From positions 4,160,001 through 4,224,000 of the forward strand of contig CBDIID010000003.1 in NCBI GenBank assembly GCA_965279515.1: 64,000 nt of DNA, written 5' to 3'. The notes beneath the pieces are model-generated. The model was not told where the DNA came from, searched no databases, and worked only from the letters and a program-made list of their open reading frames with translations. Of the stretch, positions 56,987-58,996 are shown in pieces (the first letter of the stretch is position 1; every line of letters begins with the position of its first letter). A program made the translations under genes and the position numbers. This DNA is from Turneriella sp. (GTDB taxonomy: Bacteria; Spirochaetota; Leptospiria; Turneriellales; Turneriellaceae).

Positions 56987-58504
<1,518 letters not shown>

Positions 58505-58680
58505 AAAGGAAATCAGTTGATCCTGAAGTTTTTCCGCAAGGAAAAGCATTAGGACCTCAAGGTCACATTATCCGTCTACTAAAGAACAGATCAGGGCCTC
58601 GGTTAATTACCAAGGGCTTTGAAAAGAAGAGCTTGTAGCACCTAGTGCGGATAGCTTTCGTTGGGAGGAAATAGGCCGTA

Positions 58681-58813
58681 GCGCTTGTAGCACTTCCGCG
58701 AAATGCTGCGCATTTCGCTCCAGAGAGCGAAGACGCTCGCATCGGTTAGAGCACTCGCCTGATAAGCGAGGGGTCGCTAGCGACGAGAACTGCGACTAAG
58801 AGTTTCAGGCATA
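58681..58813 (+). other. tRNA-Ile-derived element with structured insertions
   Basis: GCGCTTGTAGC at 58681-58691 and a 37/38 match at 58743-58780 to the adjacent tRNA-Ile; the T-loop is replaced. Confidence 0.8.
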
Positions 58814-58816
58814 TAA

Positions 58817-58889
58817 GCGCTTGTAGCTCAGCGGTTAGAGCACTCGCTTGATAAGCGAGGGGTCGCTAGTTCAATTCTAGCCAGGCGCA
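58817..58889 (+). tRNA. tRNA-Ile (GAT)
   Basis: Full cloverleaf: GCGCTTG/CAGGCGC acceptor, CTCGC-TTGATAA-GCGAG anticodon arm, GCTAG-TTCAATT-CTAGC T arm. CCA not encoded. Confidence 0.96.
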
Positions 58890-58923
58890 CACCTCGATGG
58901 GTGGATGTACCTGTCGAACTTAC

Positions 58924-58996
58924 GGGGCTTTAGCTCAGCTGGGAGAGCGCCTGATTTGCATTCAGGAGGTCAGCGGTTCAATCCCGCTAAGCTCCA
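58924..58996 (+). tRNA. tRNA-Ala (TGC)
   Basis: GGGGCTT/AAGCTCC acceptor with G3:U70, CCTGA-TTTGCAT-TCAGG anticodon arm. Confidence 0.97.

Follow-up and report, generated by a model that had tools for sequence, protein, structure and literature searches.

The 16S-23S spacer of Turneriella sp., a member of a genus of free-living spirochaetes, carries upstream of its tRNA-Ile(GAT) and tRNA-Ala(TGC) genes part of the tRNA-Ile(GAT) sequence repeated in tandem, with nucleotide T12 of this copy swapped for a 48-nt module with the form A-arm 1-A-arm 2-G (positions 58681-58813 of the window, i.e., the whole stretch of 64,000 nucleotides that was analysed). Comparison with related genomes makes it probable that this element represents an incomplete, spare version of the tRNA gene, occupied by a short mobile piece of non-coding DNA that belongs to the genus. 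The module looks like an undescribed mobile palindromic element similar to the REP and RPE sequences, and not like a tRNA mimic. We read it as a mobile element because it also resides in copies of other tRNAs, in further palindromic repeats and, with the reading frame kept, in protein genes. It obeys a target rule, lies in both orientations, has filled as well as empty sites and turns over, and the copies that host it change in concert with the tRNA. The module is best read as a piece of small palindromic mobile DNA and is not a tRNA, an intron, a MITE or the scar of an integrase.

Organization of the element in the rRNA spacer

All features of the locus lie on the forward strand. The look-alike element is part of the same transcript as the 16S rRNA gene (56987..58504) and is followed by the intact tRNA-Ile(GAT), recognized by both ARAGORN and Rfam (58817..58890), and the intact tRNA-Ala(TGC) (58924..58996). 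A first short copy of tRNA-Ile nt 1-11, identical at 10 of 11 positions (58629..58639), is also present in three other genomes of the genus (G011, G005 and G002; the genome of the window is G000). Behind it lies what, judging from its sequence (A-CC-6-nt loop-GG-A), appears to be a module-type first arm with the same grammar as the GAAGAC arm (58640..58652), and the next 28 positions align as a degenerate second arm together with the remains of a tRNA 5' end in inverted orientation (58653..58680). The G011 counterpart of this last region still closes, in the alignment, an 8-bp hairpin with the tRNA copy that follows. The second copy of nt 1-11 (58681..58691) is an exact match, as the preliminary description of this DNA had recognized, and the junction sequence GCTTGTAGCAC indeed recurs at 58631-58641.

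The module itself stands in place of T12 (58692..58739) and has the form that we call type II. Its arm 1 (58693..58723; pairing 0.76) consists of a 2-bp base, a 3x3 internal loop and a 9-bp hairpin at 58698-58718, and its arm 2 (58725..58738; pairing 0.73) of a 4-bp stem with a GAAGAC loop; both hairpins had been described before and are present where they were placed. A copy of tRNA nt 13-53 follows with 39 of 41 positions identical (58740..58780), spanning the D-loop, anticodon arm, variable loop and 5' T-stem, and the previously reported 38-nt match with a single change corresponds to its nt 16-53 (58743-58780, 37/38, with C for T at nt 32). The T-loop and the 3' half of the tRNA are replaced (58781..58810) by the T-stem strand copied in inverted orientation, by a weak hairpin and by CAGGC, in agreement with the earlier reading of a replaced T-loop; the replacement of the T-loop occupies 58781-58805 and CAGGC 58806-58810. 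The T-stem strand and its inverted copy make up a 12-nt palindrome (58773-58784), and CAGGC is able to close the domain with 58683-58687.

The order of the element rests on comparison; the element does not fold better than its shuffles (whole-element folding energy, z -0.82). A four-way junction was rejected as the stable fold (-30.8 kcal/mol in the model versus -47.1 kcal/mol for the MFE, with D-pairs at 0.01) and is a grammar of the sequence, not the fold that the model favours. The suggestion that GCTC might act as a switch, pairing either within the insert or as the D-stem, fared no better, with a predicted pairing probability of 0.13 as the D-stem versus 0.73 in arm 2; moreover, G005 has GGTC there.

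The assembly is sound. Both rRNA operons of G000 share one and the same spacer sequence, a contig from a run that is possibly the source sample (X1) extends over 58474-58960 with zero differences, and orthologous elements are found at the same place in G011, G005 and G002, with a minimal form in G006. These observations rule out the misassembly that the preliminary description had considered. The comparison with sequencing runs was made on contigs only, with runs of small shares left out. One RNA run (X17) yielded a single 239-nt contig of depth 2 over 58617-58844 with no difference, from which the strand, the ends and the RNA nature are not deducible.

The module and its hosts across the genus

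The grammar of the module can be written as C-[A/T, arm 1, A, arm 2, A/G]-C, with lengths ranging from 24 to 60 nt. An A links the two arms in 109 of 115 cases, and the linker 3' of arm 2 is a purine (A or G) at 80 of the 88 parsed sites; the 5' flanks vary, the base before the C being G in 46, T in 16, C in 15 and A in 15 of 92 sites. The commonest 5' (first) arm, CWCCGAAGRCGGAG, occurs at 111 sites distributed over all 14 Turneriella genomes (1-20 per genome); its reversed sequence occurs at 2 sites, and 1 site was found in six genomes of other genera. By a strict test, arm 2 is present at 33 of 44 sites in the genus versus 1 of 40 viral matches, and the viral matches to the module were dismissed as chance.

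Sorting of the 92 distinct sites (loci L369-L462) into host classes by rough regular expressions placed 28 in tRNA copies and 26 in palindromes of the TTCGAC/TCGATAC type. Repeats that separate cassettes host a further 14 and palindromes of the CCCCTC type 7, and the remaining 17 lie elsewhere. The share of tRNAs is understated here because about 20 further sites, mostly beside tRNAs, lie outside the 92-site count. Targeting of tRNAs is not supported as a defining trait, since 64 of the 92 sites read lie outside tRNA copies; from the earlier proposal of a mini mobile element that targets tRNAs, the mobile element is upheld and the targeting is not.

A second arm could be parsed at 88 of the 92 sites, although several of the parses overrun. 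When each parsed site was rebuilt with each of the four bases and matched elsewhere, an empty site was found for 23 of the 88 (12 tRNA, 11 other), and the base was always T, never A, C or G. Wherever an empty counterpart turned up, the module stands in place of the T in C-T-C, and the GCTC of the D-arm is one such C-T-C site. The module is also found on the antisense strand of tRNA-Asp T-arm copies in G013, again at C-T-C. Pairing at the empty sites is not above background (0.60, 0.47 and 0.56 versus 0.51), and the sites show no replichore bias (7 leading, 9 lagging); both results weigh against the explanation that we favour.

Several protein genes have taken up the module in-frame. In G000, 51 bp made up of a host palindrome and the module lie near the putative start of an MnmC-like methyltransferase gene (PF05430; L358:2280-2330, about position 3190290 of contig C3, minus strand), and the site is empty in four relatives. 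Insertions of 51 bp are also in-frame in a G013 gene and, behind the start, in a leuB-like gene of G008, and two G001 genes carry 48 bp and a bare 27-bp module, respectively; the orthologues of all these genes are empty in G000. Thirteen loci were tried in this check, the remainder being intergenic or without a spanning orthologue.

A GTDB scan for the junction of the module returned 24 loci, of which 9 are real, all from this genus or from Spirochaetota MAGs, and 15 are chance matches without the module; at the class level the junction pattern is found in 8 genomes of the genus and one chance match among 190. An impression voiced in the preliminary description, that similar motifs occur in leptospires, finds no echo in the 114 genomes of family f8, which we take to be the Leptospira group and several of which have incomplete sequence: the junction pattern is present in none. 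The arm-2 motif is found in 2 of 401 genomes of the phylum, and the type II pattern has no match in metagenome contigs. Rfam likewise returned no match for the module or the host repeats in 14 loci, and because of this the names Flavo-1-like, DUF559-type and attC-like are provisional labels.

Some structures in other genera are worth recording. In the neighbouring genera, two leaders of tRNA-Ala(TGC) (L014 from G029 and L015 from G015) repeat nt 1-11 in the sense direction and also contain hairpins and a copy that is inverted in part, and they have no GAAGAC module. In G038, an f8 genome, tandem repeats of the 3' end and trailer of tRNA-Tyr and tRNA-Asp (L300, L303) share a structured insert of about 120 nt at the position of the T-loop, which differs from the Turneriella module.

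Conservation and covariation of the module

The type II form of the window, whose arm 1 holds the long hairpin and whose arm 2 ends in the GAAGAC loop, is represented by nine distinct copies, all of which lie in tRNA copies. The base pair of arm 1 is T-A or C-G in 9/9, and pairs 3 and 5 of arm 2, though not pair 4, score better than all 1000 shuffles of copies that are, as kin, non-independent. The genus comparison thus bears out the expectation that the inserts form a family found in copies of several tRNA isotypes, with covarying stems, and, as the module is genus-wide and its arms covary, it disposes of the opposite case of inserts unique to this locus.

The 48-nt insert is identical at 47 of 48 positions between G000 and G011 and at 37 of 48 between G000 and G005, the latter comparison including three compensatory double changes. 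Elsewhere the same two genomes, G000 and G011, are far apart, with 79/124 positions identical in the 5' spacer, 27/36 in the 3' replacement part and 0.51 at four-fold sites. There is no other copy of the long hairpin in G000 that could refresh it. A purely neutral relic fails to explain this tRNA-like conservation of the insert, a point that weighs against the explanation that we favour. Loops and wobbles, taken as a test of RNA versus DNA, gave GNA 13, its complement 9 and GNRA 4, and internal A-C/C-A 7 versus G-T 1; these small numbers lean away from selection on a sense RNA.

Copies of tRNA 5' ends in leaders

Insert-bearing copies of the adjacent tRNA in G000 flank tRNA-Ile (twice), both non-initiator CAT tRNAs, Arg(ACG, TCG and CCT), His and Asp, and cognate 10-mers are found in the flanks of 11/34 tRNA genes in G011, 11/34 in G002, 10/31 in G007 and 8/30 in G005, a few of these being chance matches. 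Among 163 tRNA leaders from five genomes of the genus, a sense copy of at least 9 nt from nt 1-20 of the leader's own tRNA is present in 31, with 0.7 expected from non-cognate tRNAs, and an antisense copy of at least 9 nt in 22, with 3.4 expected. The earlier judgement that the element is not the product of random decay is upheld by the first of these counts. Loci whose tRNA has TAGCTCA at nt 8-14 are affected in 14 of 20 cases versus 2 of 18 for the others (Fisher p 3e-4, on hand-made lists).

Three forms of leader alternate at one locus between species, viz., a perfect inverted copy of 17-20 nt immediately upstream of nt 1, which several leaders have; a sense copy followed by the module, the D-loop and an inverted copy; and a sense copy with the module only. 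Likewise, the form of the module at a given tRNA locus can change from species to species, and the two rRNA operons of G002 contain one and two copies, respectively. Copies downstream of tRNAs carry inserts of other hairpin pairs in the anticodon loop, the variable loop and the T-loop. The copies keep pace with their genes: nt 16 is C in both gene and copy of G000 and G002 and T in both gene and copy of G011 and G005.

One inverted leader is that of tRNA-Thr(GGT) (G000, C3:895792-895866), in which a perfect 19-nt inverted copy of nt 1-19 is separated from the gene by 4-5 nt, within a transcript that spans several tRNAs; it is also found in G002, G005, G007 and G012, and other species have similar inverted arms upstream of Met, Val(GAC) and Arg(TCG). 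Two further observations concern the tRNA annotation. The second rRNA spacer and a tRNA-Lys of G005 (L235, L236) have many one-base gaps, which are probably long-read assembly errors, and ARAGORN found no tmRNA gene in the whole G000 genome, where it may be divergent or interrupted.

A possible role in tRNA maturation

The alternative that competes best with a mobile module in a spare tRNA copy is that the leader copies, whatever their origin, are kept as functional pre-tRNA leaders, whose competition with the cloverleaf would slow, gate or time the cleavage by RNase P. We regard this as possible, though unlikely. The near-identity of the insert against a background of diverged silent sites and its compensatory double changes with respect to G005 speak in favour of it, as do the excess of antisense leaders, several of them perfect over 17-20 nt, and the antisense copy of tRNA-Thr(GGT), which follows a change at tRNA nt 7 in G012. 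The predicted pairing of the acceptor stem drops from 0.62 behind plain leaders (43 leaders, a random quarter) to 0.24 behind leaders with both kinds of copies (n 11), 0.19 behind those with sense copies (n 27) and 0.00 behind those with antisense copies only (n 16); for the window it is 0.00 versus 0.59 when shuffled. These values come from a folding model without tRNA tertiary contacts or modifications. A precedent exists in a designed system in which, in the available portion of the report, a paired leader blocks RNase P in vivo (PMC7897497). That RNase P riboswitch is comparable in that a structured leader could mask the pre-tRNA from the enzyme, and differs, as far as this portion of the report goes, in being synthetic and ligand-driven with the leader alone masked, whereas in Turneriella nt 1-20 of the tRNA itself are predicted to pair. 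However, the copies take on various forms at a single locus and some species lack them, copies also occur downstream of tRNAs, the same module is found in places unrelated to tRNA, and repair of palindromes together with gene conversion can yield covariation without selection.

The two readings may be combined, in a scheme that we consider doubtful: a selfish hairpin module inserting at C-T-C would have seeded sense and antisense leaders at about two-thirds of the D-arm-compatible tRNA loci, and the cell would now use them as natural masks that gate 5' maturation. If true, the masking leaders would be part of an unrecognised layer of tRNA control. Single-copy essential tRNA genes stand behind perfect antisense arms of 17-20 nt, where by current models RNase P should be blocked, so that cells either resolve such traps routinely or use them. 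The module also gives a concrete source for these odd copies in tRNA leaders.

Other explanations for the tRNA copy

It was suggested in the preliminary description that the copy is a tRNA mimic or a processed RNA. That processing turns it into such a mimic with a stable existence of its own, or that splicing restores a tRNA from it, seems very unlikely to us. In favour, the anticodon arm and a closing 5-bp stem are kept in G000, G011 and G005, and tRNA-Val(TAC) of G007 has full-length copies with an insert in the D-arm alone. However, the copy in the window has neither a T-loop matching the consensus nor the 7-bp acceptor end, ARAGORN and Rfam call the real tRNA alone, the orthologous copies of G002 and G006 end before the anticodon arm, most copies elsewhere stop at nt 24-30, and none of the four sequencing runs (contigs only) has a joint that skips the insert. 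This last result, together with the loss of T12 and the T-arm, a length of only 48 nt and the lack of an intron match in Rfam, also led us to reject a tRNA intron of the group I or BHB kind. The mutant tRNA of Pelobacter is, from what the available text of its description conveys, a different thing (PMC3543383).

Reverse transcription of the tRNA, with template jumps at modified bases and subsequent recombination at the cognate locus, would explain why the copies begin and the inverted copies end at nt 1. Further inserts lie at nt 36/37, 45/46, 55/56 and 58, which are presumably near commonly modified positions of tRNAs. We nonetheless judge this route very improbable: a reverse transcriptase is not found in 8 of 13 genomes of the genus, including the module-rich G007 (99% complete) and G005, the module also lies on antisense strands and in DNA other than tRNA, and some of the tandem units take in DNA upstream of nt 1.

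Integrative elements usually leave partial tRNA copies behind as scars, and such copies do occur at this locus. An attL/attR scar at tRNA-Ile is, however, hardly credible, given that it is the 5' part that is repeated, that 3-60 nt separate copy and gene, that both operons carry the copy and that the same form recurs at no fewer than 14 tRNA loci with no integrase or cargo in between. A MITE or an IS110-type element was rejected on the lack of terminal inverted repeats, the replacement of the target T and the absence of PF02371 from all 20 genomes searched. A plain decayed duplication or a misassembly, for which the unremarkable folding energy of the whole element might be cited, has practically no probability left in view of the read-derived contig without differences, the orthologues in related genomes and a module family with covariation.

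A plausible course of events

If, as we favour, the element is a mobile module in a spare tRNA copy, its history might be as follows. A hit in the sole copy of a tRNA gene would be lethal; survivors would thus hold a damaged copy beside an intact one, and duplication would accompany or precede the hit. Fold-back or template-switch copying would add inverted pieces in the order sense-inverted-sense, slippage or unequal recombination would make and remove tandem units as direct repeats expand or collapse, and gene conversion would make the portion taken from the tRNA follow the changes of the genuine gene. The copy, transcribed within the rRNA precursor, would be cut away; it is not a tRNA.

The weakest step is the identity of the mover, perhaps an HUH enzyme (Y1) that works on single strands and, in the manner of TnpA-REP, would act at C|T in trans. 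Even granted a mobile module, this route is a minority possibility that we put forward tentatively. TnpA-REP, in the available parts of its descriptions, cuts single strands at C|T, one enzyme also cutting at C|A, and tandem units can be built when the freed 3'-OH primes DNA synthesis or attacks a second cut (PMC8266576, PMC3333891). Such chemistry would fit the left junction of the module, which agrees with C|T, as well as the duplication, but not the usual loss of T. The T should be retained in a simple insertion at C|T; the purine that serves as 3' linker at most parsed sites, as given above, counts against the HUH route. Genes for Y1 enzymes are present in G000 and in 11 of 13 genomes of the genus, and were not found in two genomes that bear the module and are incomplete. 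The mover was not found among them, as the 22 Y1 loci read carry palindromes unrelated to the module (the MAGs may be incomplete). The small Y1 genes at L031 and L201-L224 are IS200-like and each is flanked by long perfect palindromes of its own, with one tandem array among them.

Other candidate movers were rejected. Reverse transcriptases, with the distribution described above, do not track the module; neither do stand-alone GIY-YIG proteins, with one match in a 670-aa frame, nor DUF559, which is absent from G011 and G010. None of 20 genomes passes the cut-off for an integron integrase, and IS110 is set aside on the PF02371 search already mentioned.

Relationship to known palindromic repeats

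The nearest relatives in kind are the REP/BIME sequences with their TnpA-REP (RAYT) enzymes, which, in the available portions of the reports, are short non-coding palindromes that form modular arrays, amplify neighbouring DNA in tandem and have a C|T junction (PMC3333891, PMC8266576, PMC6006769). The Turneriella module, a short palindrome dispersed over many extragenic sites (111 in 14 genomes), resembles them in this respect. Unlike them, it has no GTAG foot of its own, GTAG occurring only where the host tRNA supplies it; it is built of two arms with single-purine linkers and usually costs the target its T; it nests inside other repeats; and no cognate REPtron was found, the Y1 loci having other palindromes. 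Its copy number is low for a REP family (1-20 per genome), which counts against the explanation that we favour. The CGTC-tagged repeats and the Rickettsia palindromic elements (RPE) are, in the available text, likewise palindromic, without a known dedicated transposase and in-frame in protein genes, and tRNA duplicates are not described there as the main host (PMC3733652, PMC3184786). The module shares with these repeats the in-frame insertions with empty orthologues. It does not have the terminal CGTC tag with its 8-9-bp stem, its ends being fixed otherwise and its length being 24-60 nt, and in Turneriella repeats of this sort host the module and are not the module. Thus, the module is not filed as a member of the REP or RPE families because it fails their tags and has no cognate REPtron.

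The repeats behind tyrT of E. coli are tandem units that include part of the adjacent tRNA gene and are co-transcribed with it. They are similar to the present case in their tandem units, and repeats of the 3' end of such a kind also occur in the genus Turneriella; they differ in that Turneriella repeats the 5' part upstream, with a mobile insert and inverted copies. For the order sense-inverted-sense, tandem inversion duplication, reportedly worked out in Salmonella, offers a comparison. Inverted triplication has, in the available part of its description, the same order and hairpin junctions (PMC4689423), whereas the units in Turneriella measure tens of bases, not kilobases, contain no origin and have a recurrent insert at the junction.

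No description of the module or of such tRNA leaders was found in the portions of the literature available, although a related repeat from spirochaetes may be listed in the family tables of PMC3733652, and the available part of the T. parva genome paper makes no mention of such repeats. How short palindromic repeats without a transposase of their own originate and move is, in the available text on the CGTC repeats, an open problem (PMC3733652). The module offers for it a sharp and testable target rule, the replacement of the T of C-T-C, with many filled and empty sites, together with nesting inside other repeats and in-frame entries into protein genes, in a genus with a harmless member in culture.

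Larger repeats were also observed in the course of this analysis. Contig C3 of G000 has, at about 90-165 kb and 3.73-3.80 Mb, arrays of branched repeats of about 210 bp with AAC...GTT ends, which are interspersed with a multicopy 1.5-kb insertion sequence and which resemble the attC sites of integrons. In G012 (L373), a group II intron adjoins an attC-like repeat.
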